The position numbers and the translations under genes are program-made. This document shows positions 13,609 through 37,026 of a DNA stretch of 64,000 nt, in pieces; position 1 is the stretch's first letter; every line of letters begins with the position of its first letter. The notes beneath the pieces were generated by a model that was not told where the DNA came from, made no database searches, and worked only from the letters and a program-made list of their open reading frames with translations. This stretch comes from Neophaeotheca triangularis (lineage: Eukaryota). The stretch spans positions 62,001-126,000 of the forward strand of contig BAAIJX010000020.1 in the NCBI GenBank assembly GCA_054600435.1, given 5' to 3'.

Positions 13609-13860
13609 TTATCCTCCTCCACAGCCCCCACCACCCCCACCACCACCGCCGCCGCCGCCGCCGCCGCCACCACCATCTCCGCAAACCCCAACTGGCCCTC
13701 CGCCTCCAATGAATACTGGCTGATGCCTGCGTGTAGGTTCCACGGGATCACCAGAACGGTAGTAGACTTTGTCCCTGTGGCTGGAAGTTGAGCTAGTCAT
13801 GGCCGAGGAGGGTGGCTTTTGGTACTGATCGGAGTCGGTTCGGGAAGCGCAGAGGCCCAT
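13609..13860 (-). CDS. Small protein A (83 aa): MGLCAS N-terminus, poly-Gly/Cys C-terminus
   Basis: ATG at 13860 (atgggcctctgcgcttcccg); MGLCASRTDSDQYQKP...VCGDGGGG...CGGG*; TATAA on the minus strand about 220 nt upstream; same N-terminus in two other ORFs. Confidence 0.7.
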   Translation of the reverse strand: MGLCASRTDSDQYQKPPSSAMTSSTSSHRDKVYYRSGDPVEPTRRHQPVFIGGGGPVGVCGDGGGGGGGGGGGGGGGGGCGGG

Positions 13861-15003
13861 GATTGCGATACGATTGGGCTGGACTTGGAAGTTGTGTTGT
13901 GTTGGTGCTTGCGAGTAAGGTTGAGATGGATGGGGTGGTTCTAGAAGACTGCTTGGATTGAGAGTCGGTCTGCTGGATTCGAAAGCTGTGCGGTCTTGGT
14001 TTTGTGTCGAGTCGGTGGTGGTTTTCTCTTCCACTGGAGACTTGATGTTGTGAGTACTTCACCTCTTTTTAGGCCCTTATATGTTTATGAGCTGTGACTT
14101 GAAGGATTCTGTGAGCCAGGCTCAGCTAAAGAGGCTGTGCTTAGCTGTGACGCAAACATTAATAGTACGGCTTGTAATAGGTTGTATAGAAATTTGCAAC
14201 CAAACCGGTGAATCAAAGAAGGGCACGGGTCGTCAAAAGGTCTGCATCCTACGTTGTTGGTTGTATTGGTACCAGTCGTCCTAGCCAACGATGCGATTCG
14301 ATCACGAGCACCGAAATGGAAGCGTTACAGATCATACGTACACTGCCTCGTGCGGGACATGAAAACTGAACGAGAGCAGCTGGGAAAGGTGGCAGTTATC
14401 TTCCTAGCTATCTGCGGACACGGTGCCAGTGCCGTTGTTCAACTTCATCCAGGACTGCAGACTCGTATGATTGACGTTACGAGCTGCTGCAGCATGCATG
14501 GTAGGTAGACAGGACACTAAACGAACATTTCTTAGCAATCGTAAGTACTATGTATGTACTCTGTCATCCGTACCCTACCTTATCTTACGTTCTCAGTTCT
14601 GTGACAGTCCACGGAAGCGGTAGCCATGGAATGTATCTATCTAGAGGTCGTTTTGGAGCCTTCTCATGCAAGCCACATTGAAGCACAAGACGATGTACCT
14701 ATTAGATAAAAGGACTTGTGACGGATTATACTTATATTGTCGTAAACGTGATTTATTAAATTGGTTATAGATAACACAAGAGGATATTGTCTACGGTAAT
14801 TACCCAAGGATCAGAGGGTTTCCATTCAGACAACCTGTGCTGTTGCAATGTGTGCATTCGTAGGATTCAAACATGCCCTTAGTTACCTTATATAGTAGAG
14901 GCAACCTTCAGCATCCGGCTTTCGGCCGTAACGTCACCATTTCTTAACAAGGCAAATACCTTACATTTTGCATAAGGCATCTCCTCCATCTCACATGGTA
15001 ACT

Positions 15004-16251
15004 ATGAAACTTCCAAGGTTGGCAACTCGTTCTTACACCACTTTTAGAGCCATGTCTCCAAGTATCAAGATCAAGCAATTGCCATCTCCCAACCCGGATC
15101 TTCAGACTGCCAAAGCCCACCATGTCGGAAGTCCTCCCACTACTTTCACTAACCCCTGGCCGTCCTTCCAGACCTTGACAAAGACTACCCTCTTCTCAGC
15201 ACGCTTCGGCAGCAATGCGGAAAAGAATTTCGTGCCTGTGCCCGAAAGCACCGACGGACAACGATCAAAAGAATTGGTTCAGGTCCACAAACCGGACTGG
15301 CAATCAATCACAAGCAACAACGAATCCTCTCTAAAGGTTACGTGGCTAGGCCACGCATCTTTCCTGGTAGAGGCTCCAGCTTCTCCAGGCGCATCTCGAG
15401 GCATCCGTATTCTCTTCGACCCGGTCTTTAGCGAACGCACGAGTCCCGTAGGCTTCATGGGACCGAAGCGATACACCCCTACCCCTTGCACCGCAGATGA
15501 GTTGCCCGAAGTCGACATCGTCTGCATTTCCCACAACCATTACGATCACCTAGATTACAGTTTCGTGCACGACCTTTACAAGCGGCGCAAAGGTAACGTC
15601 CACTTCTTCGCAGCTTTAAACAACAAGCCCTGGTTCACGCAGCACATTTGCAAACCCGAAGACGTCACCGATGCGGATTGGTGGGACAGCTTCTCCGTGC
15701 AAGTCGAAGGCGTGGGCACCGTCAATCTCACATGCACCCCGAGTCAACACGGCTCAGGCCGTACGCCTTTCGACCAAAACAACACGCTCTGGTGTTCCTG
15801 GGCGCTCTCCACACCTGCGGGAGAAGACTCCCGCCCCAAAGCCCTCTACTTCGCCGGAGATGCCGCATACCAGCACCCAGACGCGCCATCATCGTGTCCA
15901 GTCTTCAAAGAAATAGGCACGACTCTCGGACCTTTCGATATAGCTCTCTTGCCCATCGGTCTCATGACTCCGACTAAAGTTATGGGTTCTGTGCACGCTA
16001 CTCCCGAGCAGTCTTCGGAAATCCACAAGGAGGTGAAGGCGAAAGTTAGTGTGGGTATGCATTATGGAACTGTGAGGGGAGGTATCAGTGCGCAGTATGA
16101 GGATGTCAGGGATCCGCCTAGGAGGTGGAGGGAGGTGGGGGAGAAGGAGGGTTTGTGGGCTGGTGGAGGGGTCGAGGGGAGCGGTGGGCATGTTGATGTG
16201 GGTAAAGGGGGCCTGGGGCTTGTGCATGTTGGGGAGACCATTGTGGTTTGA
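15004..16251 (+). CDS. FMP30: N-acyl-phosphatidylethanolamine phospholipase D (metallo-beta-lactamase fold)
   Basis: F.NPWPS, TWLGHA, ILFDPVFSER.SP, GPKRY, ISHNHYDHLD, LYFAGD, LLPIG, HATPE, GMHYGT; presequence-like MKLPRLATRSY (alternative ATG at 14995). Confidence 0.88.
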   Translation: MKLPRLATRSYTTFRAMSPSIKIKQLPSPNPDLQTAKAHHVGSPPTTFTNPWPSFQTLTKTTLFSARFGSNAEKNFVPVPESTDGQRSKELVQVHKPDWQSITSNNESSLKVTWLGHASFLVEAPASPGASRGIRILFDPVFSERTSPVGFMGPKRYTPTPCTADELPEVDIVCISHNHYDHLDYSFVHDLYKRRKGNVHFFAALNNKPWFTQHICKPEDVTDADWWDSFSVQVEGVGTVNLTCTPSQHGSGRTPFDQNNTLWCSWALSTPAGEDSRPKALYFAGDAAYQHPDAPSSCPVFKEIGTTLGPFDIALLPIGLMTPTKVMGSVHATPEQSSEIHKEVKAKVSVGMHYGTVRGGISAQYEDVRDPPRRWREVGEKEGLWAGGGVEGSGGHVDVGKGGLGLVHVGETIVV

Positions 16252-17061
16252 GAGAGTTGTCTTTGCTTGTGGCCATTTTGGATTTATGGACGCTTTCTTC
16301 GAGTTTTGACGACTTTGAGAACGAGCGGAGCAGCAAAGACGATGCATAGGTCTGTCAAACACGAGGACACACCGCCAGGTGATCCAGGAGACGTGAGGCG
16401 GAGATGCTTTCCTCAACCATGGTCCAAGGACAAGACCTGCAGATCATACGATGGAATCATCCATAGCTCCATGCTGCTTGGTATATTGGACCGGAAGGCG
16501 AGCAGCTGTAGAAGAAGACCCCTTTTCATCTACCAGCCGAGAGCAAAGGACGACGCTGTAAAGGACCTGAGTTGTTGTGCGAGTTGGGTTGAGGGAAGAG
16601 ACCCGGGCTGAGTGAAGTGAAGACGTAGGCCGGGTGGGTTTCCGGGGAGGCGGAAATGGGTGATGAACGGAGCGCAGCAGAGGCGCCGATGCGAGGCCCC
16701 AGACACTGAGCCCCGCCGAGAGAGCGCGATCACGCCGTGGTCGCAGCGATTACAATCAGGTGTCATTCACTTGGAAATAGCCCAAAATCATCCTGAGAAG
16801 ACACGGTGGTAGCATTGGAAACGGTCAGCTCCCCACTGTCTACTTACCAAGTCGAACCGCCTTAGACCACATTGCGACAGTCAGTCCAAACCTTCGACGT
16901 CCCGCATGGATTCACAGATCAGATCAGATCACCAAAGACCGAGATCACCAGCTCAGCATCTCAAATGCATACAGGAAACGACGGATATTTTACAGCGCCA
17001 ACCAACTTCAATACAAAGCCTTCTGGCTGTCAGAATACGGGCGATACCGACCCCTGAACTC

Positions 17062-17259
17062 CTAACCCATCGCATAACCCCCGCCAAATCGCCTCCACCT
17101 CCACTCCTCCTTCTTCATCTGAGCGTCCACCTCCTCCTGCTTGGACTTTTTCTGTTCCTCTGAAGTCAAGGCTTGCCCGTCTTTGGTAGTGGTGTGCGAC
17201 TGCCGCGCAGCCGCGGTTGGCCGGGTTTTGGAATCGGGTTGAGAAGCGCAGAGGCCCAT
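17062..17259 (-). CDS. Small protein B (65 aa): MGLCAS N-terminus, FGGGYAMG C-terminus
   Basis: ATG in acaacaATG context; first 17 nt identical to small proteins A and D. Confidence 0.7.
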   Translation of the reverse strand: MGLCASQPDSKTRPTAAARQSHTTTKDGQALTSEEQKKSKQEEVDAQMKKEEWRWRRFGGGYAMG

Positions 17260-17741
17260 TGTTGTATTTGTTCTTTGCTCTTAAGGTGTCAGGGAATCTG
17301 CTCGGCTGGCTGGTGTTTTGCACAGACCCTTGCGGATTTTTGATTTCGTAGCTGGCCAATTTGTGTTGACGTTGAAGGTGACTTTCTTGCTGTACACGGA
17401 CAGCTATACTCGGACCTAACGCTATGGAAGCTCTAGTGGCGTTCATGTCCCTATTTGAATGCCACACCTCCATGGTCTGAAGGATTCGCTCTGCTGATCA
17501 GCAGGCTAGGCTGACACCATCGCCAAGGTCATGATGGCTGTGTTTCGTGTACCTCGATACCTTACTCCACCCGTCCACACGAGCACATCGACTCCGGCGT
17601 AACGCAAACGGAACGGCAGGCACAAGCGAAAAGGATGCAAAAGACAGAACAATCCGTGCCGGCAACTATCAAGAAATAGGCTCCGAATCCTCCAACACCT
17701 ACAACGCCAGCCTCATCGAAGCAGGTCTGTACCTAACTCCC

Positions 17742-18107
17742 CTAAGCAACACCCCCAGCCAGAACCCCGCCGCCATAAACATTGTCCCCCAAGTTCTTCA
17801 GACTAGGTTGCGTTTTCCTCCTCTCCCTGCCAAACAAGTCAGCGCTGCCCGACAAACCTCTAGCCCAGACAAGCTCTACAGCAGAAACCGCGACAGAAAA
17901 AGGGGGGTACTTCCAACCCCCCTTTTACTAGCAGCATTAGAGGCTCGCGACTTACTCCATCTGCTCGCGCTGCTCGGCGGTCATACGGACTCCCGTGCGC
18001 TCGCTGCTGCGGACGGGGAATTGGGGTTTCTTGGGTTCGGGCTTGGAGGGCGCTTTGGTGGGATCGGGGGTGGGCTCGGTGTCGGTTTTGGAATTGCACG
18101 TTCCCAT
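17742..18107 (-). CDS. Small protein C (78 aa, spliced): MGTCNS N-terminus; exons 18107-17956 and 17826-17742
   Basis: GTAAGT donor at 17955, gctgac branch and cag acceptor at 17827; spliced product MGTCNSKTDTEPTP...EQMEERRKTQPSLKNLGDNVYGGGVLAGGVA*; unspliced form stops at 51 aa. Confidence 0.65.
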
Positions 18108-20607
18108 TATTCTTCGGCGTGTTTTTGGACTGGTGACTGTGGTGGAGTTGTTGCTCCGCTTTGGGGTGAGGTTGCCCTTTTGGTCTGAGGGTTTCGATGG
18201 CGAGGACTTGGAAGGGAGGAGCTCAGAGTTGGTCAGGTGGGCAGTGGGTTTGTTTGAGAGTTTACAGCTGACTGTTCGAGCGTCGAGACTATGGTAACTG
18301 TGGCCTTGCGGAGTGGTTTTGACGTTTCCAAGGCCACTGAACGGTGCCTTGTTGCTACTTAAAAAGAGAAAACCCCCTCGCGCAAGACACTAGTAGCACG
18401 ACAAGGCAGTGTTCAGAACGGCAAGCTCGGCGTCGATTACAGCTAGCGCATCTTGCAGCCAGCCTCAGTACAGGAAACTGGAGAGAACAAGACAACTATG
18501 TCATCCAAGACCGAATTGCTGGTAGTTCGCTGTCGTCGACGTCTGTCTGGCTGGAAACGAAACCCCCGCATCGAGGTCGCAAAGTCGGCATCGGGCCGTG
18601 TTGGCGCTTTCTTGGACGGTCTTAGAAGTTGGAGGTGGCCTTTTGTTGTTCGCATACCTACTACATACCTACCTACTTACCTTACCTTATCCTAGGTATC
18701 CAAAACAACCACACAAGGGCTAGAATGCGACCCATCAATGTACTCAATATTTAGGGAGGGCAACCGCAAGCCCGATTATGACACGGGTGTCGTAGTGCTG
18801 AGCCTCCCCAAACTCTTCACCGGCCTGTATTTCAGCTCCTATCAAGCTCGTTATTGCGAGCGACCTTTTCGGTATAGACACCTTACTCGGGAGAACGAAG
18901 AGCGGGAACAGATGCGACGGATAGAGGAACTCGAGGACGAAATCAGAGGAGTTGAGCGAGGATTCCCCCTCATTGGCCACTGAGCAGTACAGAAGGCCGA
19001 CGCGACCCTGAACAAGTCGCAATCAACGCCTTCCATCCTATTCTCTCCTGCCAATGCCAACCATGGCCTACGGGCGCTCCTCAACTCGATCAGACACGGC
19101 GATCATGCCCCGGTCCTGTCACGACAACCAGATCGAATCGGGCAAAGCCACCGAGCCAATAGCGGACGCAAGTACATACTTCTTCCGGAACGAGAAATCC
19201 TAGACGATTGCAATGAGATAAAGGGTTACCAACCCGACGTACAGAAGGCAGTAGGGAGCGGGACGCAGGGCTTCCAACTTTCGGTTGTCAATCTCACCTC
19301 GTTTGTGCAGGAGGTTAAAGTTCAGGCGTCTGACGTGGTCGTAGACAAAGCCTTCCAGTATGCAGAGCTCCGGGCGAGTAGAGACGTCGCTTTCAATAGT
19401 ATCTCCCATCTCCCATACCAGGAATTACACTTTCAAGTGGCCGAGCGCAAACCCCGAGTCACTAACGTTGCATTGACGTTGGTTGCACTGCAACGCGGTT
19501 GACGTCTACACTTCGTTGCTCAGGGGTTAGAGGATTCTCAGTCTCACAGCCTCGACTGTGTTTTTGTCCTGCGGGTGGTCGATTCGCTTGCGCTGGGTCG
19601 CCGCCTTCGACGCCCCTTTTTCTTCCAGCCTCGTAGCGTTCCCAGACCTCCAAAACTCGACAGAAAAAGACTCACAGCACTCCGAAACCACGAAACCCCC
19701 GCAAAAAAAAAAAAAAAAAATCCCCCACAAAAGCCGACAGTCAAATCGATAGAGCTCTATACCCGCATTCTACGCACACGGCCGCAAGCCAGCCGACCTG
19801 AACAAATCTCTCTCCGACCCAACCCAGCCCAGCCCAGCCCAGCCCGAAACCGAAACCGCTCACCCTCTCGCGTCGAAAGCGGCAACCGCGCACGACACAG
19901 CCAAGACGCACGAAGCTCCCAAGGAGCCAAAAACCGCACTCGAACCTGTCCGTCCCCTGCCAAACCCGTCATGAGCAAAAGGAACCAAGACCACGCGCCC
20001 TCATCGCGTTGCGTTCCGTACCCATTGCTCTCGCACGCAGCGGGATGCAGAAAACCCCCCCTTTCCTCTTTTACCCTTGGCCAGTCTCCCACTCCAGCTA
20101 ACCGACCCACCTCCTCCACCCACCGAGACCTAGCTTGATCGACCAAAAAAACAAAATCAGCGAAACGGCAATGGCACAGCACAGCGAAACCCACAACGCC
20201 ACAGCATGCAAGCCAGCCAGCCAGGCCGGCAACAACCGCAAACCTGGCGGAAAGAACCCCGGCCAGGAAGCTGTGCAGCATGCCTCTTGTCCCAAGAGAA
20301 AGTCGAAAAAGCAAGCCAGGTAGGTAGGTAGGCAGGCCTACTGTATCGGCACTCCCCATTCCTAGCGGGCAAAGCGAAAGCAAAAGGAAACAAAAGTAGT
20401 AAAAAGTGAATTTTTAAAAAAATGAAAGGGGGTATGCCCACGCCGCACGCACGCTCGTTAAAATTCCGCTCGCTGCTCGCATCCCGTCGCATCCAATCCC
20501 GTCCCGCTTCGTTGTGGGGTTTCATTGGGAGGACGGCTTTGATTAGTCTGTCTGTCTGTCTGTCCGTCTCTCTGCGCACGTTCTTTTGACAGTGGCAGGG
20601 CTTCCTG

Positions 20608-22257
20608 TTACAGCCCCTCCTCGCCAGCTTTGCACACTTTAATACCCTTGCCCCATTCCGAGTTCAAGACTTGGTGGGCGCTGATACGGCGGTTGGCGTT
20701 GGGGTCGAGGATGCTGTAGATGACGTTGCGGCAGCGGGCCTGGGAAGATTGAAACGTGTTAGCTCGGAATTGCAATTTTCTTCTTCCTTGCTCTTTCCAG
20801 GAGATGAAAGGGGTTGGTACATAGCATACCCTGTGCAGCGTCTCGATCGGCGCATAGCCCTCCTCGCTCTTGCGCCCGCTGATGTAATTGGCGTAAAACT
20901 CATCCTCGTCCTTCTTAGCCGTGCGCCACAAGTGGCGGCCCGTGCGCATGGCCATGTAAATGACACCGCAAGCCCAGACGTCCACGGCGCGGGGGTCGAA
21001 CTCGCGCTCGACGTACTCCTCGGGAGCAATGTAAGGCGCGCTGCCGCAGAGGCCGGCCGTCATGTGCGGCTCCGTTTCCCAGGCCATGCGGAAGCACTCG
21101 CCGTTTCCGAAATCGGTAATTTTGAGCGCGCCGTGGTTGGTCAGGAGCAAGTTTTCGGGTTTTAAATCGCGGTGCGCCACGCCCATTTCGTGGATGTATT
21201 CGACGCCGCGCATGAGTTGAAGGAAGAAGCAGTCGGCCTCGGCGACTTCGAGTTTGCCGGCTGCCAGGACGAGGGAGTAGAGGTCGCCGCCGGCGCAGAA
21301 TTCCATGACTTCGCAGTAGTCGCCTTTGGCGTCGGCGAGGAGGTCGAGCGTGTGGATGACGTTTGGGTGGCGTAGGGAGGAGGAGATGCAGAATTCGGAA
21401 TTGAGGCGTTTACTGTACTTTTTCAGGTCCTCCTGGGGCCGTTTCCGGAACTCCTTGACAGCGTAGAGCTGCTCGTGTTTGGAGTCGGCCGGGTCCTGCT
21501 TGTGGGCTATACGCACGATACCGAAGGCGCCGCGGCCCACAATCTCCTGGCACTTGCCGTACTTTTGAACCAGAGTGGCTGTCGCGTTCGGCCCGTTCTT
21601 CTGATCCGAGGCGACCTTGTTCCGTTCGTTCTTGAGCTGATCAACCCAACTAGACATGAGTGACAGCTCCTGATCACCGTGATGTTCCCTCTTCTTTCCG
21701 CCCAGAAGATCGCGCATCATGTCCGTCAACTTTTCCTGTCGCTTCGCGCTCTTAAGTGTATGCTGATGCGAGCCATCCTCCTCCATGGTAAAGCGTTTGG
21801 GCTGGCTGTTGGCGGCATCATCCTTCTTGGTGCGACCATCGCTGTTTGTACGGTGCATGCTTCCGTTGACCTTGGTTTGTGAGGATTGTCTCGAGGTCCC
21901 GGGACGCTTCTTACTGCCATGTTCTTCATCCTCTGCCGGCGCATCCGGCACTTTCTCGGAGACGGGTGTACGACTTGAGTCTCGACTCGAATCGTTGCTA
22001 TCCTTGTGCGAAAACATGCGACTCAGACGCGAAGTGAATGTCGGCTTTCTGGGTGGAATTGTAGGTCGCGGTTCACCATTAGAGGTGGCGGCGGGTTCGG
22101 CAGGGACACTTGCAGGTGGAAGAGTCGCATCGCTTTTGGTCGACGAGTCTACCGAGGCGGTTGAGGCTGTAGATGCGGTAGGAGCCGGTGAGGCCTGTGG
22201 AGGGAGAGGGCGCTTTTGTTCAGCGTCGCTTGACGTGTTTTTAGAAGCCGCGGCCAT
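20608..22257 (-). CDS. SAT4: HAL-family Ser/Thr protein kinase; 90-nt intron 20829-20740; an upstream exon is possible
   Basis: KYGKCQEIVGRGAFG, YAVKEF, SEFCISSSLRHPNVI, HRDLKPEN, DFG, CGSAPYIAPEE, AMRTGRHLW. Confidence 0.9.
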   Translation of the reverse strand: MAAASKNTSSDAEQKRPLPPQASPAPTASTASTASVDSSTKSDATLPPASVPAEPAATSNGEPRPTIPPRKPTFTSRLSRMFSHKDSNDSSRDSSRTPVSEKVPDAPAEDEEHGSKKRPGTSRQSSQTKVNGSMHRTNSDGRTKKDDAANSQPKRFTMEEDGSHQHTLKSAKRQEKLTDMMRDLLGGKKREHHGDQELSLMSSWVDQLKNERNKVASDQKNGPNATATLVQKYGKCQEIVGRGAFGIVRIAHKQDPADSKHEQLYAVKEFRKRPQEDLKKYSKRLNSEFCISSSLRHPNVIHTLDLLADAKGDYCEVMEFCAGGDLYSLVLAAGKLEVAEADCFFLQLMRGVEYIHEMGVAHRDLKPENLLLTNHGALKITDFGNGECFRMAWETEPHMTAGLCGSAPYIAPEEYVEREFDPRAVDVWACGVIYMAMRTGRHLWRTAKKDEDEFYANYISGRKSEEGYAPIETLHRVCYVPTPFISWKEQGRRKLQFRANTFQSSQARCRNVIYSILDPNANRRISAHQVLNSEWGKGIKVCKAGEEGL

Positions 22258-24659
22258 TTCGGACGTTTCTGCGCTGGTTGGTGCTGGTGCTTGGGTTGGT
22301 GCTAGGTATACAAGGATGGCGCGGGCAGTAAGTGGGCACAAACGCCCGTGGGTATCGTGCTCGACGACAAAATAGCAGGCTCGGTGAAGTTGTAGACTGT
22401 CGTGTTGGGGAGGAGGAGGAGAGGAGGAGGGTGTTAATCGGACGACGACGGTGAATGTGGCTAGTTATTTAGTGAGGTCACTGGATAGATAGCCAAGAGT
22501 CAAGGCCAGGTGAAGCTTCTCTAGATAGGCACTGCACGGCGCGTGTAGTACCTAGGTAGCTCGTAGAGAGGAGCTTGGCGGATTTGCGCAGCTTGGGTGC
22601 TCTATCTGTTCTCTGTTGCGGATGACAAAGGCGGGCGAGAGAGAGAGACGGGAGTGCAGGTGGACGGGGCGGACGTGACGGGTGATTCTTTTTGCTTGCG
22701 CTCGGAGTTTGGCGTAACTAGTCGGTCAAACAGACTTCGAGGGGCTGGATGGCTCCGGGTGTGTTGTGGTAATAAGCCAGGGCAACTTCTCGTTGGACTC
22801 TGACGATGTGAGAGAATTTCAAGGTGGACGTGCAAAATATTCCAGTCGTGTGTTTTCAGTGCGAATCACTTTAGACCGGGGTGAAGATGAAGGCGTGGCG
22901 GCTGATGGGGGTTCGGGTTGTAACTTGTACCTCCAATTCGCTTCACACTGCAACTGGTGAATTGAAAGGATAGCCACGGCACGCGCGCAAGCCGAGGGTT
23001 CGACAATTCCGCCCGTCTAGCAGTCGTCTCGTCTGCTGTGATTGTCGTCGCGTCCTTTTTTGGGGGAGCAGCAGCGGCGGTGCGGCAGTGAGGACGACAG
23101 CTTGTGTAATGATAAGTCTTGAATGTAAGTTTTATTAGACAGTAGTCGTCGGGTCGAAAATAAAGGCCCGAAAAGAGGTCCACGGGGTCATAATAATAAT
23201 GATATTTCTTGAAGCTGCCACCTAAGTTACCTAGATACTAGTAGTCCAACAGTACAAAAAAGGCGAAAGTACTGCGCGATTTCTAGACACCCGACAGCTG
23301 GAGGCGGGTATGGCTAACTAAGGTATTACTAAAGGTCAATCAATCATGAGGTGAATGTGATGCTTCTTATCACCAAGTATGCAGCCCGCAGCAAGCATAA
23401 GACGTTCTTTATACTACCTAGAGTATGCATTCATCTCTGATTACCTCTACCTTATGCCGCTCCGTCGCGACTCGACTGGCCGCCAAGGCATTTCATCACC
23501 AGCTCATCACCAGCTCATCACACCCTTCACACGTGCAGCAAAGACTGGCTCTCTTAGACTCTCCTCCCTCACCGACTGCCCTGATAATATCAACACCACC
23601 ACTCCGTGTTAAAAAGACACATCGAACGAACCCGACAACCACTCAACTTCACCACATCCTTCCCGTCCTTCACAATCACCATCCGCACCATCCTCACCAC
23701 CCCTCCTCCCCGAAAGCCACACTACTGTATCCACCTACTGTACCTACCCTCCCATCCCACTCCCTGCAGCCCTCCCCTTAGCGCTACCCACTCACCGCGG
23801 TCATCGGACTACCTAACCTGCACCTATCGTTAAATAGTAATGTATGATGTACGACGTTAGCAGCAAACAAACGGCATCTTTATCGAAAAGGGAAAAACAA
23901 CGGTGACAGCTACGACGGCACAAGACCCACATCCACATCACCTTTCCGCGCTGGCTGGCAACGTGCATCCTCGTCGTCGCCGCTCCCCCAAAGGTCTGGG
24001 CGAGCTTTTTCGTTCCAGCGTTAAGACGCTCTTGCGTGACCGCGCAGGCATTGGCGGGTCGTCGATGCTCGAGCAAAGGTCTGGTCTTGTGTGCACAAGA
24101 CGGGGGTTTGGGAAGCGGAGCTCGAAACCCAAGCCGGTATTGATTGTGGCCATGACGTTTGGTTCGGTTGGTAGGTAAGAAGCTACCCGTAAGGCTACAG
24201 TCACCTCCTAGTATCTATCTGTGTATGATGTATCTAGTCGCGGTTACCGAGCCAAGGCTGGGCACAGCTCGCAAGTTGCTGCAGCGCAGAGCATCCGTCT
24301 GCAGCGGCGAGGCTTAGGTGCAGGAGCTTGCGCTGTGCTGTGCATGCGGATTGGTAACCTCGGCGCGAAGGACCTTGGCCTAGGTATGCAGTCGCCGTGG
24401 CTTTTCAGGTCCGTCTGTCGTAGTAGCCAAGCCAGAGGGAGGGAGAGACTGGGAATGGGGGGTGTTGATTACAGTGTAGAAGAGAAGCTGGAGATCTGGC
24501 TCGCACCAGCTTCTCTCGTCGACCATGTACATACGAAACAATTCCCCAGCCTGCTGACCAACTCCCGGCTGCGCGCAAACCACTGTAAGGCCATCGTATA
24601 ATACAGCATCGCTCTACAAAATAATACACAGCTCCGTCATGAACCCGATTCCCCAACTC

Positions 24660-25380: not shown

Positions 25381-25742
25381 TGTTGCGGTTTTTGAACGGG
25401 AGGTTGGTGCGTGTAGGAAGAGAGCGACGACTAGTTGGTGTGGTTGTGATTACAAGACGTTTGCGAAGTGAAGAGAGAGATACGTATTGAGGTCTGATGA
25501 GATACGGAGCTACCTAGGTGTAGATGTCGGAACGCGTTTCGCGGAGCTCTGGGGGTGTTGTTCTTGGCACTGCAGCTCTTCATGAACTCTATCTAACAGA
25601 CACCTGCAATTGCCATTGCGCATTGCTTAAATGTAATAGGCAATTAAACAACGCGTTCCGTTAAAGGTATTGCAACCGAAGAAAACATACATAAATGTAT
25701 AAAGACGTCAAAGGCATATCACTTCGTCACGACGATCACGCT

Positions 25743-26937: not shown

Positions 26938-27308
26938 GTTAGAGTGAAGGCGGCTTTGTAGCCTTTGCAAAGCTTAATGCTCTGGAAAGCAAGATGCCTG
27001 CCTAATTGAAGACTGCCTTGATGTTGGTGATGTAGAGTGAAAGATGGGAAGAAGCTGTTGCGTGTTATTTCTGCCTAAAGTAGTAGGTGGTTTGCCAAGG
27101 CTTGAGGCTCTGCGGTTGGTCCCTGGCTACCGCCGATGACGGAAGGAAAGAGGGACGCGGAGGGGCATGAGAAAAGTCGTTTGGATGCAGGTGGCAGTTC
27201 ACTGACTGCAAACCAGTGCTTTTCAGCGGACTTCATACTCTTTATTATTTGATCTAATCAAGTTCAAACCGGTAATAAGCTCACTCGACCAGCAATACGA
27301 ACGCAATC

Positions 27309-28685
27309 ATGGACTCAATGCTTCCTTCTTCTGGCAGCTCGAACAAGGTCCTCCTCCTTGGAGCGGGCTTCGTCACAAGGCCAACCATTGTCGAACTTGA
27401 CAAGGTCGGCATCCAGGTCACAGTCGCATGTAGAACGCTCGACAGCGCGAAGAACCTGTGCGATGGCATGAAGCACGCCAACGCCATCTCCCTCAACGTC
27501 TCGGACAAGGATGCTCTCGAGCACGAGATCAGCAAAGTCGGCCTGGTCATCAGCTTGATTCCCTACACCTTCCATGCCCAGGTCATCCAGGCTGCTATCA
27601 ACCAGAAGACCAATGTCGTCACCACCTCCTACGTCTCCCCGGCGATGATGGAGCTTGACCAGGCTGCGAAAGATGCTGGCATCACTGTCTTCAACGAGAT
27701 TGGTTTGGACCCCGGCATTGACCACTTGTACGCCGTCAAGACCATCACCGATGTCCACAGGGAAGGCGGTAAGGTTACAGGCTTCCTGTCATACTGCGGT
27801 GGTCTCCCTGCCCCTGAGAGCTCCGATAACCCTCTCGGTTACAAGTTCTCTTGGTCCCCACGTGGTGTCCTGCTCGCCGCCCGCAACACTGCCAAGTTCT
27901 ACAAGGACGGCAAGGCTGAGACTATCCCTGGCCCTGAGTTGATGAGCACGGCAAAGCCTTACCTCATCTACCCTGGCTACGCTACTCTTGCCTACCCCAA
28001 CCGTGACAGCACGCCCTTCCGCGAGCGCTACAGCATCCCCGAGGCCCAGACTGTCATTCGCGGTACCCTCCGCTACCAAGGCAACCCATCTTTCATCCAA
28101 ACCCTGACCGACCTGGGCTTCCTCAGCGAAGAGCCGCAAGAGTTTCTCAAGGGCAAGATCAGCTGGAAGGAGGCCACAGCCAAGATCATCGGCAGCACAA
28201 GCCGCGCCGATGAGGACTTGGTCTGGGCCATCAGCTCCAAGGCCAAGTTTGCCAACACGGACGAGAAGAACCGCATCATGGCAGGTCTTCGTTGGGTTGG
28301 TCTGTTCTCTGACGAGGACATTGACCCCCGCGGCACTCCGCTCGACTGCCTGTGCGCAAGCTTGGAGAAGAAGATGCAATACACCGAAGGTGAGCGCGAC
28401 ATGGTCCTGCTGCAACACAAGTTTGAGATCGAGTGGGCGGACGGCAAGAAGGAGACCAGGACATCGACGCTGTGCGAGTACGGTGCGCCCGAAGGCAGCG
28501 GCGGCTACAGTGCCATGGCGAAGTTGGTCGGTGTGCCAGCAGCAGTTGCTGTTCAGATGGTTTTGAGCGGCGAGATCAAAGACAAGGGTATCCTTGCGCC
28601 TGTCACGCACGAGCTGGCTGAGCCCATCAGGCTGAAGCTCAAGGAGCAATATGGCATTGAGTTGACGGAAAAGACATTGGCTTAG
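27309..28685 (+). CDS. LYS9: Saccharopine dehydrogenase (NADP+, L-glutamate forming)
   Basis: VLLLGAGFV, VVTTSYVS, NEIGLDPGIDH, SYCGGLPAPE, NPLGYKFSWS, YPNRDS, RGTLRY, SAMAKLVG. Confidence 0.97.
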   Translation: MDSMLPSSGSSNKVLLLGAGFVTRPTIVELDKVGIQVTVACRTLDSAKNLCDGMKHANAISLNVSDKDALEHEISKVGLVISLIPYTFHAQVIQAAINQKTNVVTTSYVSPAMMELDQAAKDAGITVFNEIGLDPGIDHLYAVKTITDVHREGGKVTGFLSYCGGLPAPESSDNPLGYKFSWSPRGVLLAARNTAKFYKDGKAETIPGPELMSTAKPYLIYPGYATLAYPNRDSTPFRERYSIPEAQTVIRGTLRYQGNPSFIQTLTDLGFLSEEPQEFLKGKISWKEATAKIIGSTSRADEDLVWAISSKAKFANTDEKNRIMAGLRWVGLFSDEDIDPRGTPLDCLCASLEKKMQYTEGERDMVLLQHKFEIEWADGKKETRTSTLCEYGAPEGSGGYSAMAKLVGVPAAVAVQMVLSGEIKDKGILAPVTHELAEPIRLKLKEQYGIELTEKTLA

Positions 28686-29083
28686 ATGGGGAACCGATAC
28701 TTCCCAGCGAGATCAAAAGTTATTTTAGATTGACGAGTTTATGAAGCAAGGCTCGTATGCTGGATTCGTGAATGTACCCTCACGTTTTGTGTATGTCCCG
28801 TTCTCTTGGTCGAGTCATCTTTGTTGCACAATTGGATACCTGTTGCCCCGGAATTCAGGCAGAAACGATAAAGAAAGTCTTGGCATATGTCATCTCATAT
28901 CTGGTGGGGCGGCTACGGTGCAGGCGTGAACGAAAGATTTCAACCTTGCGAATTCTCCACGACTTCACCCCCACTACCTCCGACTCCTCTTCTCCCTTCT
29001 CTATTTATCTAACTGGTGAGAGGACCCTCACTACCACATAATACCCTACCTACCAACAAACACACCTACACACCCACTTCACC

Positions 29084-31108
29084 ATGGTTTCCGCATCCAA
29101 GGCAGCCCGTGACGCCAAGCGCGCAGAGGCCGGCAAGGACAAGCCCAAGAAGACGGCAACCTCCAGGGTCGCGTCCAAGAACGCCTCCAAGGCTAGCAGC
29201 GTCAACGGTGATGAGCCTCTCCTTGACGCTGACGGCAACCCCCTCCCAGAGTCGGAACAGCCTGCACTCACCGACAAGGTCGCCAAACTCGCCCTGCAAG
29301 AGGATGACAAGGGCATTTCAGACCGAGTGACGACCGGTGTGCTGGCCTCGCTCGAAGCCAGCAGAGACGTCAAGATCAACTCCGCCTCGCTTGTGTTCCA
29401 CGGCAAGGTTCTCTTCAACGACACCACACTCGAAGTAAGCTATGGTCGTCGCTATGGCTTGCTCGGTGAGAACGGTTGTGGTAAATCCACACTACTCCGG
29501 TCGATCGCTAGTCGAGAGTTCCCCTTCCCAGACCACATCGACATTTACCTGTTGAACGAGGGTGCTGAGCCTTCAGACTTTGGTGCTCTAGAGTGGGTTG
29601 TGAAGCAAGCAGAGGCGGAGCTGGCCAGACTGGAGAAGAAGGCTGAAGAGATTTTGGAGGATGATGGCCCGGACAGCCCTAAGCTCGAGGAGCTGTACGA
29701 GCGCATCGATGGCATGGACCCCTCTACCTTCCACACACGTGCCTCCCTCATCTTGACTGGTCTCGGCTTCAACAAGAAGACGATTGAGAAGAAGACCAAG
29801 GACATGTCTGGTGGCTGGCGTATGCGTGTGGCCCTTGCCAAGGCCCTTTTCGTCAAGCCTTCGCTTTTGCTCCTCGACGACCCTACCGCACATTTGGATC
29901 TTGAAGCCTGCGTGTGGCTCGAAGAGTACATGAAGAAGTGGGACCGCACTCTCATCATTGTCTCTCACTCCATGGATTTCATCAACGGTGTCTGCACCAA
30001 CATGGTCGACATGCGTGAAAAGCAGCTGCTTTATTACGGAGGCAACTACGACTCGTACTGGAAGACTCGCTCCGAGCAGGAGGTCAACCAAATGAAGGCC
30101 TACGAGAAGCAACAAGAAGAGATCAAGCACATCAAGAAGTTCATTGCCAGCGCCGGTACCTATGCCAACTTGGTGCGTCAAGCCAAGTCCCGCCAGAAGA
30201 TTCTCGACAAGATGGAGGCCGACGGCTTCATCCAGCCCGTCCACCAAGACCGTGTTTTCACATTCCGTTTCGCCGATGTCGAAAAGCTGCCCCCGCCTGT
30301 GCTTTCTCTCGACGACGTCACCTTCTCCTACTCGGGCAAGAAAGAAGACACCCTTTACGAGAACCTTGACTTCGGTGTCGACATGGACTCCCGTACAGCC
30401 TTGGTCGGACCCAACGGTGTCGGCAAGTCCACTCTCCTGCGCATTTTCACTGGCAAGCTCTCGCCCACCTCTGGCGCCGTGTCCAGGCACACCCATCTCA
30501 AGCTCGGCATGTACAGCCAGCACTCGGCCGAGCAGCTCGATCTCACCAAGAGCGCTCTCGACTTCGTTCGCGACAAGTACTCCTCGCAATCGCAGGACTA
30601 CCAGTACTGGCGCCAGCAACTGGGCCGCTACGGTCTTTCCGGTGAATCGCAGACTGCGCTCATGGGCACGCTTTCAGAAGGCCAGAAGGCCAGAATCGTC
30701 TTTGCCCTGCTGGCCATTGAAGGACCAAACATGCTGCTCCTTGACGAGCCGACCAACGGTCTGGATATCCCCACCATCGACTCTTTGGCCGATGCCATCA
30801 ACGCCTTCTCGGGTGGTGTTGTTGTCGTCTCCCACGACTTCAGGTAAGACTGCACTCGTTCTCCTCCACTAACCCCTTTCCACGTTTTCTCTTCACTCCC
30901 CCCGTGAAACTCCGAACCCATCATCCTTGTCACGATCAACTCGAAGTAAAGTACCAAACCACTCACACTTCTTCAAAACAGACTCCTCGACAAGATTGCC
31001 AAGGACATCATGGTTTGTGAGAACAAGACCGTGACCCGCTGGGACGGCAGCATCGGCCAGTACAAGAACCACTTGCGCAAGAAGATGATCAACGCCAACG
31101 CCGTCTAA
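29084..31108 (+). CDS. ARB1: ABC-F family ATPase (ABCF2/Arb1); intron 30844-30981
   Basis: Two ABC domains without [56 protein letters not shown]. Confidence 0.95.
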
Positions 31109-32143
31109 GGGAGGAGCACAAGACAAGTACCCTTTCCAAAAGTGCGCGTGTGAAGGGGGACGAAGAAATGAGACTGCGGTATCAGGCTCATCGGGGAGAA
31201 ATGGTTATGACTCGCGAAATGACACAAGAAGCAAGAACCCCTACGATTATTTTCATTCCATGCGATGCATCTCTGAGCCAACGAACGGTCGGGGCGGGAT
31301 GCGTTCCCAACTGAAGAAAGACCGGGGATGCTGGAACCTCATGATACACACATTCGTGATTTGCATGGGCGAAGGAGGGTTTCTTTTGCCAGCATGAAAG
31401 CTTGGTTGGGGGGAAATGGAATAGACCGCGATGAGACCAAAAATGGCGTTTTTTTTTTTTTTTGGTTCCTTTTCTTTGGTATTGCTTAGGTGGTAGTCGA
31501 ATGAACATGGCTATCACAACTATCCACGACTCTTGTCTCTGCCCACTAAGCGAGGCTCTCGCTTTTGCTGATGAGTCTTGCTCGCTCGCTCGCTGCGCCC
31601 GGGCTATTGCGTCTTGTTTTGCTCTCGTGTACTACAGAATCCTGCTCGATAGGTAATGACTTTTCCCCCTCCACCCTCGGACTGGCTTACTCTTCGACTG
31701 CACGCGCAGGCATGACGGGGCTAAAGCCAGACGAAGAATCATCACCGTGCGAGCTCCACACTGCTTTCCCTTTCTCCCTTTCCAAGGGTTTAGGAGTATG
31801 CTGACACGGCTACTTGACTTGCTCACACGACTTGCTGTTGTTACCGTTACCACTACAGCCTTTCTAATGACTACCTAGCTACCGCGTCCGTCCGCTCATT
31901 CATTAGCCATATTGTTACAACCGGCCCCTTAGCAGGCGCTGAAAACCCCCTCCGACAATCAAACCCAACCTGAGGCGAGGTTGGAAGAAGTCGGGTGAAG
32001 GGAGAGAGAGAGAGAGAGAGGACTAGAACCCAGCACATTGTGCCCCGCCGTACCGAGATCCCGCATCGCGATCCCAACCGTTGCAATCATCCGCTCTATG
32101 TGACCCTCTCTCTCGCCATTCCACCCTCGGCAGCAACACAACC

Positions 32144-33946
32144 CTATATCTTCACCTCTTTCAACCCCTCCACAGCCCCGGCAACAGCCGCATCCTCCTC
32201 CTTCTCCAAATCCCCAGCCCTCTCCCCGTCAGCACCCTCCTCTACCTTCCCTCCCTCACCACCACTAGAATCTACCTCCCTCAACCGACTCTTCGGAAAA
32301 CTCCCCCTACGCCCCACCTCGCCCTCCTTATTCTCCACATCCACAATCGGCGAGTGCAAACCCATCAAGTTCTCCGTGCTTCCTGTCTCCACAATTGGAG
32401 CGGCGGGGCGGTTGGCATTCCTGGCAGCGAAATCCATGCTCGAGACGGCGGGGAGTTGGGGTTGTTCTTCCGCAACGCGCGCGAGGGGGCTGGAGAGGTG
32501 CGCGCGGGGCGAGGAGGTGTTGTTGTGGTGGGCGGGCGCTTTGCCGTTGTTAAGGCGGTGCGGGCTGCGGCCGCGTTCCTCGGGGCCTGCCGAGGGGCTG
32601 GCGTAGGGCGAGTAGCCATTTGCGTTTGGCGAGACGTTGCTGTTGATGCGGAGGCCGCTTTTGCCGTTGCCATTGCCGCCGCTTCGGCGGGGTGCCATTT
32701 TGCGGCCGTGCTTTTGGTCGCAGCGCCAGCGCAGGATGTCCAGGTATGCGGGCTCGACGCCAGGTTGTTTGAATTCGCGCAGTTTGAGCTCGTTGCTTTC
32801 CTCTTCTATCCATGCCTTGTCTGTGTTCATGTCGTCGGCGAGGGTGGCGAGGAAGGCAGCCCAGCTGCGGGCGACGACGTATTTGCAATCGTAGTCACGT
32901 CCCATGATGATGACTTGACCCCATTGGCCTGTTGGGCCGGGTGCGAGGTCCAGGGCGATGTTGTTGCCTCCCCAGTCGCGGGCGAGAGGGATCCAGGACG
33001 GGTGGGCGTAGGCTTTTTGTATGGCGTTGGGAGGCTGGCTGTCTTGCTTGTCTAGAAGTTCTTGACGCCAGTGCGGGTTGCCGACGTTTTGGGGCTGGGC
33101 AACTGGCACAGCCGATGAAGAGGAAGCAGTTCCAAAGGCTTTGAGCGGAGCGGTGGGGATAGAGTAGCTTTGTTGATCGCTTTGGCTGTCGGCGCCCAAA
33201 TAAGCTTCGTTTACTGTGCGCCATTGCTGCCACTCCTGCATGATTTCCTCGCAGTCGAGCAGCATGCAGCCAAAAACGACACCCGTAGGAAGACCGCCCC
33301 GCTCTTGTCCATCGTGCACCATGAGGGACTCGCGCACTTCCTGAGGCAGCGTGCAGTCCAATTCATGCTCGAGCTCGTTGACATCGTTCATTGTCGCGCC
33401 CATGCAGATGTTCTCGAACAGCTCCTCGTAATTGTCTTCCAGCCAGCGATCAATGCGCTTCCAGCTGTGCGAGACGGGAGGTGGAGGGGGCAGACCCTGT
33501 GAGAAGTTCTGCATTTGAATCTCACCCGGCGCGACATCGTCGAGCTTGTTGCCCGCCATGTCGGTTTCGCTCTGTTGACGCTGCAATTGCGTCCGCATGC
33601 CAGGCGAGTATGGAACGCCAGGTGACATGGGCGCACCATTGCTATTGACGAAGCCATTCTGTGATTCCGAGTCGGCGCCGTAAGCAGGGTTGAGTTCGGT
33701 GCGGGACTCTAGAGCGCTTGTCGCGACGGAGGTGAGCGGGGTGTGACGGCTTTGAGGGAGGGGAACATGTTGCCCGGTGCGGTAGGGAGAGTCGTGTGAA
33801 GCGTGTCGGTCGTTGGAGGTCATGGTGTGCCAGAAGGCGCGCCATTGTGAAGCTATGCTGTTGGCCCCGGAGTTAGCATGGGATTGTAGACAAGAGCGTG
33901 AGGGCTTCGTCTTCTTGCTGGTGAAGAAGACGTACTTGGATGCCAT
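32144..33946 (-). CDS. SMI1: Smi1/Knr4 glucan synthesis regulator; 78-nt intron 33935-33858
   Basis: WHTMTSNDRH, SWKRID.W, HDGQE, LLDCEEI, AYAHP.WIPL..DWGGNNI..DL.PGP.G.WGQVI..GRD. Confidence 0.93.
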   Translation of the reverse strand: MASKYVFFTSKKTKPSRSCLQSHANSGANSIASQWRAFWHTMTSNDRHASHDSPYRTGQHVPLPQSRHTPLTSVATSALESRTELNPAYGADSESQNGFVNSNGAPMSPGVPYSPGMRTQLQRQQSETDMAGNKLDDVAPGEIQMQNFSQGLPPPPPVSHSWKRIDRWLEDNYEELFENICMGATMNDVNELEHELDCTLPQEVRESLMVHDGQERGGLPTGVVFGCMLLDCEEIMQEWQQWRTVNEAYLGADSQSDQQSYSIPTAPLKAFGTASSSSAVPVAQPQNVGNPHWRQELLDKQDSQPPNAIQKAYAHPSWIPLARDWGGNNIALDLAPGPTGQWGQVIIMGRDYDCKYVVARSWAAFLATLADDMNTDKAWIEEESNELKLREFKQPGVEPAYLDILRWRCDQKHGRKMAPRRSGGNGNGKSGLRINSNVSPNANGYSPYASPSAGPEERGRSPHRLNNGKAPAHHNNTSSPRAHLSSPLARVAEEQPQLPAVSSMDFAARNANRPAAPIVETGSTENLMGLHSPIVDVENKEGEVGRRGSFPKSRLREVDSSGGEGGKVEEGADGERAGDLEKEEDAAVAGAVEGLKEVKI

Positions 33947-36406
33947 TCTGTTTGGCGAAGGCGACGGGCGCGCACAATCGCGTGCCTACGGTAGCGACAG
34001 TCAAGCGGTGTCGGTGTCGGTGTCGGTGGTGGTGTTGGCTGAAGAGAGAGTGGTGTGCGTTGTTGTTGACGTCGCGGCGCCGGCGATTCGTGTTCGGCGT
34101 CCCCCTACCTCTTACCACCCGACAGCGTTAGGTTGTGGGAGTGGAAGATGAAGGGAAAATGGTGTTGAGGCGGCGTGGTGGGAGTGGGAGTGGGAGTGTG
34201 AGTAGGAGTGGTAGGGTCAGGCACGTCAGGTAGGATTTGGGTTGGTAAGATTAGGTAGGTAGCGAGTGTCAGTGCAGGTGGTGAAGAAGGTAAAAGTCGG
34301 CAGAACGTCACTGTCGTCTTGCCGCTGCCTGCCCTGCCCCTGGATGCAAAGTGTCTGTGCTTTGCTGCCTGTCACGTGTAAGGGATGCTAGTACCTTACC
34401 TAAGGTATGATGGATACAGTATGGATATAACAAACCTGCAGAGTTTGTACTAGATACTTAGGCACAGTAAGGTAGTACTAAGTACAGCCACCATGTCCTA
34501 CAGGTAAGGTACTTTGTTAGTACGAGTAGCACAGAAAGTGTATGGAATATGTACTAGTCTGCACCGTTGCTGGACCCTTATCGCCGCCGCATGTGGCTGC
34601 TATAGAGAGGTGCTCATTATTATTACCTAGGTATGGTAACGTCGGGTATATATACCAATCATCATTCACAACTAACGATCAACATTATATCAGACCAGAT
34701 CATCAACACCGGACCCATTAGACCGACCAACCAGCACTTCTTCGGCTCTCCATGGGAACTGCTGTTACGTCCTGCTTGCTGCCGATGATGACAACATCCT
34801 CCCTCCTACCGACGTCTTCCCTTTCTCTCTACTTCGACTACTACTACCTAGCTAAAGCACCTCCTGCAGACGCCTTACTCCGAGCCGCCTTTAGCAGACC
34901 AGATAGGTCACGTGGTGATGATAATGTGGGGATTTTCTCGACCTCCCTTACCCCTACGCGACAACATTCCCCAACCCTGAGGCTTGCGGCAAACGACAGC
35001 AAAACAGGACAGTGACAGACCATTATTCACCTTTCCACATAACAGCGAGTCCTGAACGATCAAACGTAGAGTGGAAGTCTCGATATGCAAAGCGACCATG
35101 TCCGGACCGTCTACGTCGCTGTCTCGGGCTTAGGCTTTGCTGTTGCCACGCGTTCTGGAAGTCTATCCGTGCATAACGTTAACGACGCCGACTTCTTCAA
35201 GTGTACGGGCTACAGGACAGTAGTAAAGTAGAAGGCATGAATATCTGCTTCCACTCCAGCAAAAGGTATTGAGAAGACAGACAACTTCCAAAATTAGTAA
35301 CTTCCCTCTTGAAGGAACTCTTCAACCTCTCTACTCTGGACCCCAAATCCGCCCTCGCTCACACCACAAGTCATCCAACCAGCCATCGGTATCGAGTTAG
35401 GTCTATCAAAGAAAAGCAACAAACACCAACCACCCCGACATCAACACCGAGACCTTCCCCCATCCGCAACCGTCCAAGTCCTCGCATACCTACCTCACCT
35501 TTCACGCGACGGCACCCCTCTCCACGAATCTGAGCAGAGGTCTCCACATCCACTCGCCCACCCGCACCGCCTCGAGGGCTCCAGGCCGTGATGATCCAAT
35601 TTTCCAAGAACACGGCCATCGGTAGGTCCTGCGCAATAGCTCAGTCTTCTACTACTGGAGTGGAAGGCGGGAGTGCAATAGGCGAGGCCAGCATGAACGG
35701 CGCCAAGCGATCACGTGAGAGCGACGCCTGAGGAGTGCGAAGCGCTGCCGCGAGCTGAAGGGTACCTTCCACTACTTTGCGTGGTAGGGTTGCGCTTCTA
35801 ACAGCTAGGGATGTGGTGCTTCTTATCGAAACGCGGCTGTGGAGAGCGGTGAGTAGACTCGGCGGGCTTAGTCGAATCCCCTAGGACGAAAGCACGCGTG
35901 GCTATAAAGGTCAACAGTGTCCTGAGTCGAAGGGATGGGACGTAATCCCTTCTTTTCAAAAGCTGAAATCACAAATCATCTCAACGTCTCTGTAGGACTG
36001 TTCGTATCATAACCCCCATATATATATCTTCGTCGTCGTCGGAGCAATTCCATCTCTTCTTCACGCTTGCCATTTTATTAGGCGGAGCAATAACGATTTT
36101 TTGAAACCCATGCAGTTGATGTGACTGTTTACTGTCGTCGGGTCGTCTCAACGATGCCATTCTCGCGGTGTTGGAAGTAAGTACTAAGAGCCTACACAAC
36201 GCACAACCCACTGCGCGAGATCGGTTGTACCGTAAGGTAGCTCAGCTTAGCGATTCTACGTCTCTAGGTATAGACGTCCGGGGAGAGTAGGTATCCAACC
36301 AAGCGGATAGCTGGCCACTAACACATAAGTAGCCATGTACTGTCAAGGCACAGTATTCGTGGGTGCTACAGACGGGCCAATCAGTTTACTGGTAGCTGTA
36401 CCAAAC

Positions 36407-36436
36407 GCTCAGCTCAGCTCAGCTCAGCTCAGCTCA
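36407..36436 (+). repeat. (GCTCA)6 microsatellite
   Basis: Six direct copies visible. Confidence 0.9.
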
Positions 36437-36729
36437 TCATAGCGCCGTCAGCCGACCTGGGAGCTTCCATCCAGATGAGATCCTTCGGGGAGGCATTTAA
36501 AAAAGCCGAGGGAAGCTGTCATGGACTCAGCCCAAACCACTCGAACCAAAGGATAAAGCCTATCTTCTCTGTTGCCAACTCTCGCAGACTTCACTCGAGA
36601 ACCCAAACTCTAACCCTCGTCCTCGAAACCACCAAGACCGACACCAAGTCCAGAACCAGGACGACAAAAACACTAGCACAAAGGCTCCCCTGAAACAAAA
36701 ACCCCCGTAAGAAACGGGAAAATCGAAAA

Positions 36730-37026
36730 ATGGGCCTCTGCGCTTCCCGCCACGACACTTCAGACCCCACCCAACAAGCCTACACCCAACAAGCCCAGTC
36801 TCACCCCCGTTCCTGCTCTCGCTCCAGCTCCTCAGACTTGCCCGGCAAGGGACCAGACTCGCACGATTTCGCCAACAACCATCCGTCGAGGCAGGGCGGG
36901 ACGGGGGCGTTCGTTCCGGTGACTTTTGGCATGGGGGGTGCTTATGGAGGCGGGCATACGGGGGCAGGGGGCGGGCATACCGGGGTGGGAGATTGTGGTG
37001 GTGGCGGCGGTGGAGGGGGATTTTGA
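36730..37026 (+). CDS. Small protein D (98 aa): MGLCAS N-terminus, Gly-rich C-terminus
   Basis: aaaaATG context after a C/A-rich leader; first 20 nt identical to small protein A; tail GGGHTGAGGGHTGVGDCGGGGGGGGF. Confidence 0.72.
   Translation: MGLCASRHDTSDPTQQAYTQQAQSHPRSCSRSSSSDLPGKGPDSHDFANNHPSRQGGTGAFVPVTFGMGGAYGGGHTGAGGGHTGVGDCGGGGGGGGF

Follow-up and report, generated by a model that had tools for sequence, protein, structure and literature searches.

We found four small open reading frames (ORFs), labeled A, B, C and D, that share an MGxCxS start in a 64-kb stretch of the genome of Neophaeotheca triangularis (GenBank assembly GCA_054600435.1, contig BAAIJX010000020.1, positions 62,001 to 126,000 of the forward strand), the whole of which is called the window here. 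This Dothideomycete is a black yeast that has been studied for its response to salinity (PMC13000284). We read A–D as real small genes, an orphan and apparently lineage-restricted family of disordered microproteins that would be N-myristoylated, S-palmitoylated and thereby anchored in membranes; we give this reading a probability of about 0.58, and within it expression, both lipidations, localization and role are what we infer.

Recurrence of the acylation motif

The pattern ATG-GGN-NNN-TGY-NNN-Ser, for which an earlier note on this DNA had proposed a scan, occurs at exactly four sites on the two strands of the window, and these are the starts of A–D. All four open ORFs of at least 51 codons (range 51–98). 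Chance was estimated from 200 first-order Markov simulations of the window, which held a mean of 0.43 such sites (maximum 3), and only 0.10 (maximum 2) that opened an ORF of at least 50 amino acids (aa). The recurrence of the motif in the window is not chance. There are six MGxC starts in all, and the two besides A–D open ORFs of merely 32 and 23 aa. What A–D share at the N-terminus is a 10-mer, longer than the scanned pattern: M-G-[LT]-C-[AN]-S-[RQK]-x-D-[ST].

The other ATG ORFs of 50–120 aa in the window (180–182 of them) served as a control set. The PROSITE myristoylation pattern (G-{EDRKHPFYW}-x(2)-[STAGCN]-{P}, taken with Ser6 as in fungal MGXXXS) is matched by all of A–D as against 2 of 182 controls. 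Cys4 is present in 4/4, within the first six residues or so and near Gly2, as in SH4-type dual acylation signals; the earlier note's assignment of the start to the MGxxxS N-myristoyltransferase consensus with a nearby Cys thus fits each of the four.

The four ORFs

The coordinates, strands, lengths, N-termini and Gly-rich ends given for A–D in the earlier note were all borne out in the sequence. The features are as follows.

13609..13860 (-): candidate gene A, single exon, 83 aa; starts MGLCASRTDS, FIGGGG at residue 50, then a Gly run, C-terminus CGGG
13619..13675 (-): poly-Gly tail repeat of A, (GGN) trinucleotide, in frame; Tandem Repeats Finder period 3, 16 copies
13861..14081 (-): putative 5′ leader and promoter edge of A; A+C 73% in -100..-1, adenine at -3, TATAAG at 14081-14076
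17062..17259 (-): candidate gene B, single exon, 65 aa; starts MGLCASQPDS, predicted helix 33-58, ends WRWRRFGGGYAMG
17956..18107 (-): candidate gene C, exon 1; starts MGTCNSKTDT
17827..17955 (-): intron of C, 129 nucleotides (nt); donor GTAAGT, branch-like GCTGAC, acceptor CAG
17742..17826 (-): exon 2 of C including the stop; ends ERRKTQPSLKNLGDNVYGGGVLAGGVA
36497..36729 (+): putative promoter edge and leader of D; TTTAAAAAA at 36497-36505, A+C 77% in -100..-1, adenine at -3
36730..37026 (+): candidate gene D, single exon, 98 aa; starts MGLCASRHDT, YGGG at residue 72, ends GGGGGGGGF

The intron of C is canonical and in frame, and the spliced product (78 aa) is letter-identical to an annotated N. 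triangularis "hypothetical protein". In a scan for hidden introns, no GTRNGT donor was found in or after the ORF of A or in D, and the sole one of B lies 215 nt beyond the stop. The upstream edges of A and D may be promoters, judging anecdotally from their TATA-like elements. No 8-, 9- or 10-mer that could be a shared promoter motif is common to the four upstream regions. A perfect (GCTCA)6 pentanucleotide repeat stands at 36407-36436 (+), about 300 nt 5′ of the start codon of D.

Signs of coding

Several features that are independent of the motif favor real genes. Adenine stands at -3 in 4/4, as against a fraction of 0.276 for all window ATGs. The A+C content of the leader (-100..-1) is 0.73 for A, 0.67 for B, 0.75 for C and 0.77 for D, compared with a mean of 0.50 (standard deviation 0.10) for 180 control ORFs, none of which reaches the value of A, C or D and 7% of which reach that of B; the 100 nt 3′ of the stops are G+T-rich. 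The frames also stay open for longer than is usual: of the 1085 ATGs that fall outside Pfam-supported genes, fractions of 0.22, 0.155, 0.099 and 0.074 lead into at least 51, 65, 83 and 98 codons, respectively (product 2.5e-4).

Codon usage was scored as log-odds trained on the 17 Pfam-supported ORFs of the window, comparing all six frames. The proposed frame scores highest of the six in every case: 0.34 for exon 1 of C, 0.16 for B and 0.03 for both A and D (window genes average 0.25, control ORFs -0.06). The signal is clear for B and exon 1 of C; the best other frame of A scores -0.002. The final run of eight Gly codons in D draws on GGT, GGC, GGA and GGG and is not called a repeat by Tandem Repeats Finder, a pattern that agrees better with selection for Gly itself than with slippage of a repeat.

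Metagenomes provided a further control, imperfect in that the DNA is mostly prokaryotic. The DNA pattern for MGLCASxxD gave at least 118 matches; among those listed, 19 open ORFs of 50–120 aa, of which none has a leader A+C of 0.67 or more and one has adenine at -3.

Long stop-free frames (155–217 codons) run antisense to C (17535-18188, +) and to D (36560-37204, -), and another overlaps B in a different frame (17030-17497, -). None of these has a Pfam match; they probably arise as a side effect of coding-strand composition. More widely, no Pfam match above threshold was found in the six ORFs that overlap or lie beside A–D, nor in four other unassigned ORFs.

A family with conserved ends

A second motif, [FY]x0-1GGG, is found near the C-terminus of all four: FIGGG at residue 50 (A), FGGG at 58 (B), YGGG at 68 (C) and YGGG at 72 (D). 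It was spotted post hoc, and occurs in the last 45 residues of 1 of the 182 control ORFs. The parts come in the same order in 4/4, namely the acylation cassette, a hydrophilic linker, the aromatic-GGG motif and a tail of small residues. Shuffle tests that included the tails were significant for two pairs only, A-D (0.003, driven by the Gly runs) and B-C (0.035). At the DNA level, similarity among A–D is confined to 35–73 nt around the ATG plus the Gly run.

The earlier note had described hydrophilic, domain-less proteins, and this description holds: the proteins are small and hydrophilic, and carry no Pfam domain. Pfam gave no family for A, exon 1 of C or D, and two sub-threshold matches for B (E 0.21 and 0.48). 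Tandem Repeats Finder detected no repeat in the middles, the sole repeat being the (GGN)16 of the A tail. Single-sequence AlphaFold2 models were made for B and C, both predicted to be mostly coil. In B, coil (1–32) leads to one charged helix (33–58) and then coil again, with a mean predicted local distance difference test (pLDDT) score of 68; in C, coil (1–43) is followed by helices at 44–54 and 61–67 (mean pLDDT 64).

The word family, also used in the earlier note, stands for some 10 N-terminal residues, the short C-terminal [FY]GGG and the shared architecture, but does not extend to the middles, which show no homology beyond composition. On these sequence features we take A–D for a single family whose ends are under constraint while the disordered center evolves freely; the shared order of parts, together with a second motif in 4/4, favors common descent with fast divergence of the linker.

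Points against and alternative readings

A number of results weigh against a coding family, and several of them come from searches for relatives. A profile of the four proteins, run against 575 candidates, matched C alone. D alone drew two word-sharing protein candidates, neither of which scored, and a phmmer search of 1.84 billion representative proteins with C returned itself and one unrelated 506-aa repeat protein (E 4.4e-4). No relative of the family was found among proteins of 173–2000 aa, which is weak evidence. In metagenomes, none of 25 pattern matches was confirmed, and none of the MGLCASxxD loci listed combines a small ORF with an A+C-rich leader and a Gly tail. As no relatives came up in these searches, the data so far limit the family to a single species. 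The earlier note did not recognize a described family here, and this agrees with the absence of any Pfam family, protein relative or literature match; literature searches for "MGLCAS", and for N-myristoylation, palmitoylation, microprotein and fungi together, found nothing.

The middles likewise lend no help. BLASTP gave no match of D with A and an E of 70 for B with C, and the local-alignment scores of the middles are equaled by 30–79% of shuffles; the earlier note had called the middles unrelated. The codon signal of A is weak, as is that of D, being equaled by 26% and 24% of controls, respectively. The poly-Gly stretch of A is encoded by a (GGN)16 microsatellite. A search of annotated proteins of 28–172 aa and of 173–2000 aa did not turn up A, B or D (weak evidence for the longer range). 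The idea that the genes were small enough to be missed by gene callers is therefore apt for A, B and D but fails for C, which is annotated. A, B and D encode Gly2, Leu3, Cys4 and Ala5 by the same codons, for which the codon usage of the window gives a chance of about 3e-4; three of these four are the most-used codon for their residue. Such identity could mean that a DNA element, and not the peptide, is conserved. Finally, rare coincidences can arise when very many windows are scanned.

Several of these points meet in an alternative that we consider unlikely, in which A, B and D are untranslated: a conserved DNA element of 17–20 nt (ATGGGCCTCTGCGCTTC...), or coincidence, would open ORFs through stop-poor Gly-repeat DNA, and at most C would be a gene. 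It would suit the lack of source annotation for A, B and D, the first five codons, whose synonymous sites are near-identical amid surroundings that cannot be aligned, and also the codon scores of A and D, the microsatellite tail of A and the want of homologues. However, the element always lies in frame with an ORF of 65–98 codons, with adenine at -3 and an A+C-rich leader (matched by 0–7% of 180 controls), and codon usage prefers the proposed frame in every case. The [FY]x0-1GGG motif stands at the far ends, beyond what a 20-nt start element can explain, and C encodes the same peptide pattern by other codons (GGA ACG TGC AAT TCC), so that conservation there is at the protein level.

It is quite unlikely, in our estimate, that A–D are real genes without a single homologous origin, that is, young or de novo genes that each gained the same acylation signal (for example by local gene conversion or cassette capture), with Gly-rich ends taken from intergenic DNA rich in GGN repeats. 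One origin is favored instead by the common arrangement of parts and by the presence of a second motif in 4/4, no further copy of the cassette was seen in the window, and conserved termini around a divergent center are also reported for the HASPs of Leishmania (PMC2946902). What such separate origins would explain is the lack of detectable homology in the middles, the confinement of DNA similarity to the start and the Gly run, the orphan status of the genes and the identity of codons 2–5 in A, B and D. It is highly improbable that A–D, instead of being anchored in membranes, serve as precursors from which secreted or lipidated peptides are made (CaaX lipopeptides of the pheromone type, or ribosomally made natural products). 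Small size recalls such precursors, as does the Cys-Gly-Gly-Gly C-terminus of A with its Cys at -4, but the "aa" residues there are Gly and B, C and D have no Cys at that position. A–D also lack a signal peptide, repeated core peptides and Kex2-type dibasic repeats, and the biosynthetic enzymes typical of such clusters are absent among the 39 long ORFs scanned in the window. A CaaX pheromone or peptide natural-product precursor was accordingly rejected, CGGG in A being the only case with Cys at -4.

A recurrent, eukaryote-looking ORF that starts MGLCASSPDAHADK was noted on four metagenome contigs (L005, L021, L079 and L096). It exceeds A–D in length and bears no relation to them past its start; it may encode another dually acylated protein.

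Genomic setting

In gene content the window is a housekeeping region of the ordinary kind. A Pfam scan of 39 long ORFs gave matches to PIG-X, SARAF, serine carboxypeptidase, protein kinase, Der1, saccharopine dehydrogenase and ABC-F ATPase, and others include KNR4/SMI1, acyltransferase, NAD kinase, Rit1, Elp3, succinyl-CoA ligase and Alg9. No G-alpha domain was found among them, and the idea that the motif is a relic of a G-alpha 5′ exon was rejected.

A–D lie within 23.4 kb, in four otherwise empty gaps between conserved genes. A is divergent from a gene like NAPE-PLD, with which B is convergent; C shares the strand of B and lies 483 nt upstream of it; and D lies between a KNR4-like gene and an acyltransferase gene. 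The genes that separate A–D include those for the NAPE-PLD-like protein, the kinase, saccharopine dehydrogenase and the ABC-F protein. The earlier note had called the family locally expanded, which is apt only in part: the genes lie close to one another, yet are interspersed among housekeeping genes and form no tandem array, the neighboring B and C being the exception.

Two of the neighbors are lipid enzymes: a NAPE-PLD homologue (14995-16251, +; E 1.6e-55 to PDB 4QN9) adjoins A and B, and an acyltransferase (37543-38856, -; Pfam Acyltransferase and Acyltransf_C) adjoins D. Their position may be a coincidence. Divergent from C, two consecutive open frames of 172 and 211 codons at 18984-20138 (+) have no Pfam match and are probably one intron-containing gene. 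A low-complexity ORF rich in Met, Gln and Gly, with repeat units G-M-D-P-x-Q-Q-Q-M, occupies 697-1470 (+) inside the open frame 520-1470; it has no Pfam match, and its Gly-rich tail ends GGMGGRRRRRRF, a Gly run and Phe as in D.

Proposed mechanism and role

The predicted proteins would consist of three parts: a cassette conserved at the N-terminus, M-G-[LT]-C-[AN]-S-[RQK]-x-D-[ST]; a hydrophilic, fast-evolving and mostly disordered middle of 40–60 residues, which in B and C includes one charged helix; and the C-terminal aromatic-GGG followed by a tail of Gly and small residues. The initiator Met would be removed and N-myristoyltransferase would place myristate on Gly2 during translation. The product, at this stage weakly bound to membranes, would then be S-palmitoylated at Cys4 by a DHHC acyltransferase. 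Dual acylation would trap the protein at the cytosolic side of a membrane, the plasma membrane being the likeliest, and there the disordered chain and the Gly/aromatic tail would act at the surface.

Yeast Gpa2 itself starts MGLCAS. MGXXXS is described as the myristoylation consensus of fungal G-alpha proteins (PMC5340391). The MGCXXS/T start of plant CBL calcium sensors is reported to undergo N-myristoylation at Gly and S-acylation at Cys, and to be both required and sufficient for plasma-membrane targeting (PMC4030171), and the yeast acyltransferases Erf2 and Pfa5 are reported to favor pre-myristoylated substrates such as Gpa2 (PMC5364179). Given this literature and the fit of the N-terminus, myristoyl-Gly2, palmitoyl-Cys4 and stable anchoring are likely if A–D are translated.

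As to function, we tentatively prefer a hydrophilin-like protectant or organizer of membranes, tethered by lipid, in a salt-tolerant fungus. A more specific and doubtful version would make A–D fungal counterparts of the Leishmania HASPs: fast-evolving, locally duplicated "anchored hydrophilins", constrained only at the two ends with the linker free, that would coat or organize the plasma membrane under osmotic or desiccation stress, or else be exported by an acylation-dependent, non-classical route.

Significance

If expressed and acylated, A–D would be a clean natural example of domain-less microproteins tethered to fungal membranes. Three of the four genes would have been invisible to the gene caller of the source annotation, and a lipidation cassette of 10 residues and a short motif in the tail would be all that unites the family. 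This bears on the number of lipid-anchored microproteins overlooked in fungal annotations and on the growth of orphan gene families, as well as on whether extremotolerant black yeasts shield their membranes with anchored disordered proteins. Since the lipidation chemistry is textbook, the gain would be in gene discovery and physiology and not in a new mechanism.

Comparison with known systems

The nearest analogue in design is provided by HASPA and HASPB of the Leishmania LmcDNA16 locus, described as genus-specific hydrophilic proteins with conserved N- and C-termini and a divergent center (PMC2946902). Their targeting to the plasma membrane is reported to need myristoylation at Gly2 and palmitoylation at a nearby Cys (PMC2946902; PMC3491706). 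A–D are similarly small, hydrophilic and taxon-restricted; the four lie within 23.4 kb but are separated by conserved genes, and their ends are conserved (10-mer and [FY]x0-1GGG, 4/4) around middles that cannot be aligned. In contrast, the phmmer search with C and the profile search, an indirect test in that no HASP sequence was aligned with A–D, gave no similarity. In A–D the Cys occupies position 4, against 5 in HASPs; the A–D middles lack 10-residue hydrophilic repeats like the central ones of HASPB; the A–D tail is Gly/aromatic; the host is a fungus and not a kinetoplastid; and the genes are interspersed with housekeeping genes.

The fungal G-alpha proteins with MGXXXS, such as yeast Gpa2, and the CBL proteins have Met-Gly, an early Cys and Ser6, as do A–D. 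Gpa2 is reported to be both myristoylated and S-acylated (PMC5364179). In these proteins, however, the signal heads a folded domain (GTPase or EF hands), whereas nothing folded follows it in A–D as judged by Pfam and by the models of B and C. Yeast Ygl108c, of about 140 aa, is N-myristoylated. It is listed as an "unknown protein" that is S-acylated by Erf2 and Pfa4, among their pre-lipidated substrates (PMC5364179), so that small acylated proteins of no known role already have one example in fungi. It differs from A–D in that no homology came out of the profile and phmmer searches.

Hydrophilins are defined by more than 6% Gly and a hydrophilicity index above 1, and one of them, yeast Hsp12, is reported to bind and protect the plasma membrane in desiccation (PMC11277543). 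Like these LEA-like proteins, A–D are small, Gly-rich and hydrophilic, and would be disordered. B (Gly 9%, grand average of hydropathy (GRAVY) -1.34) and C (10%, -1.18) fall within the hydrophilin numbers; A (34%, -0.67) and D (27%, -0.73) have the Gly content and miss the hydrophilicity cut-off. Hydrophilins differ in that they are not known to be lipid-anchored, and papers that mention both myristoylation and hydrophilins name neither in the title or abstract (0 of 8). Set beside these systems, A–D can be interpreted, plausibly and with partial support, as an orphan variant of small, dually acylated hydrophilic proteins.

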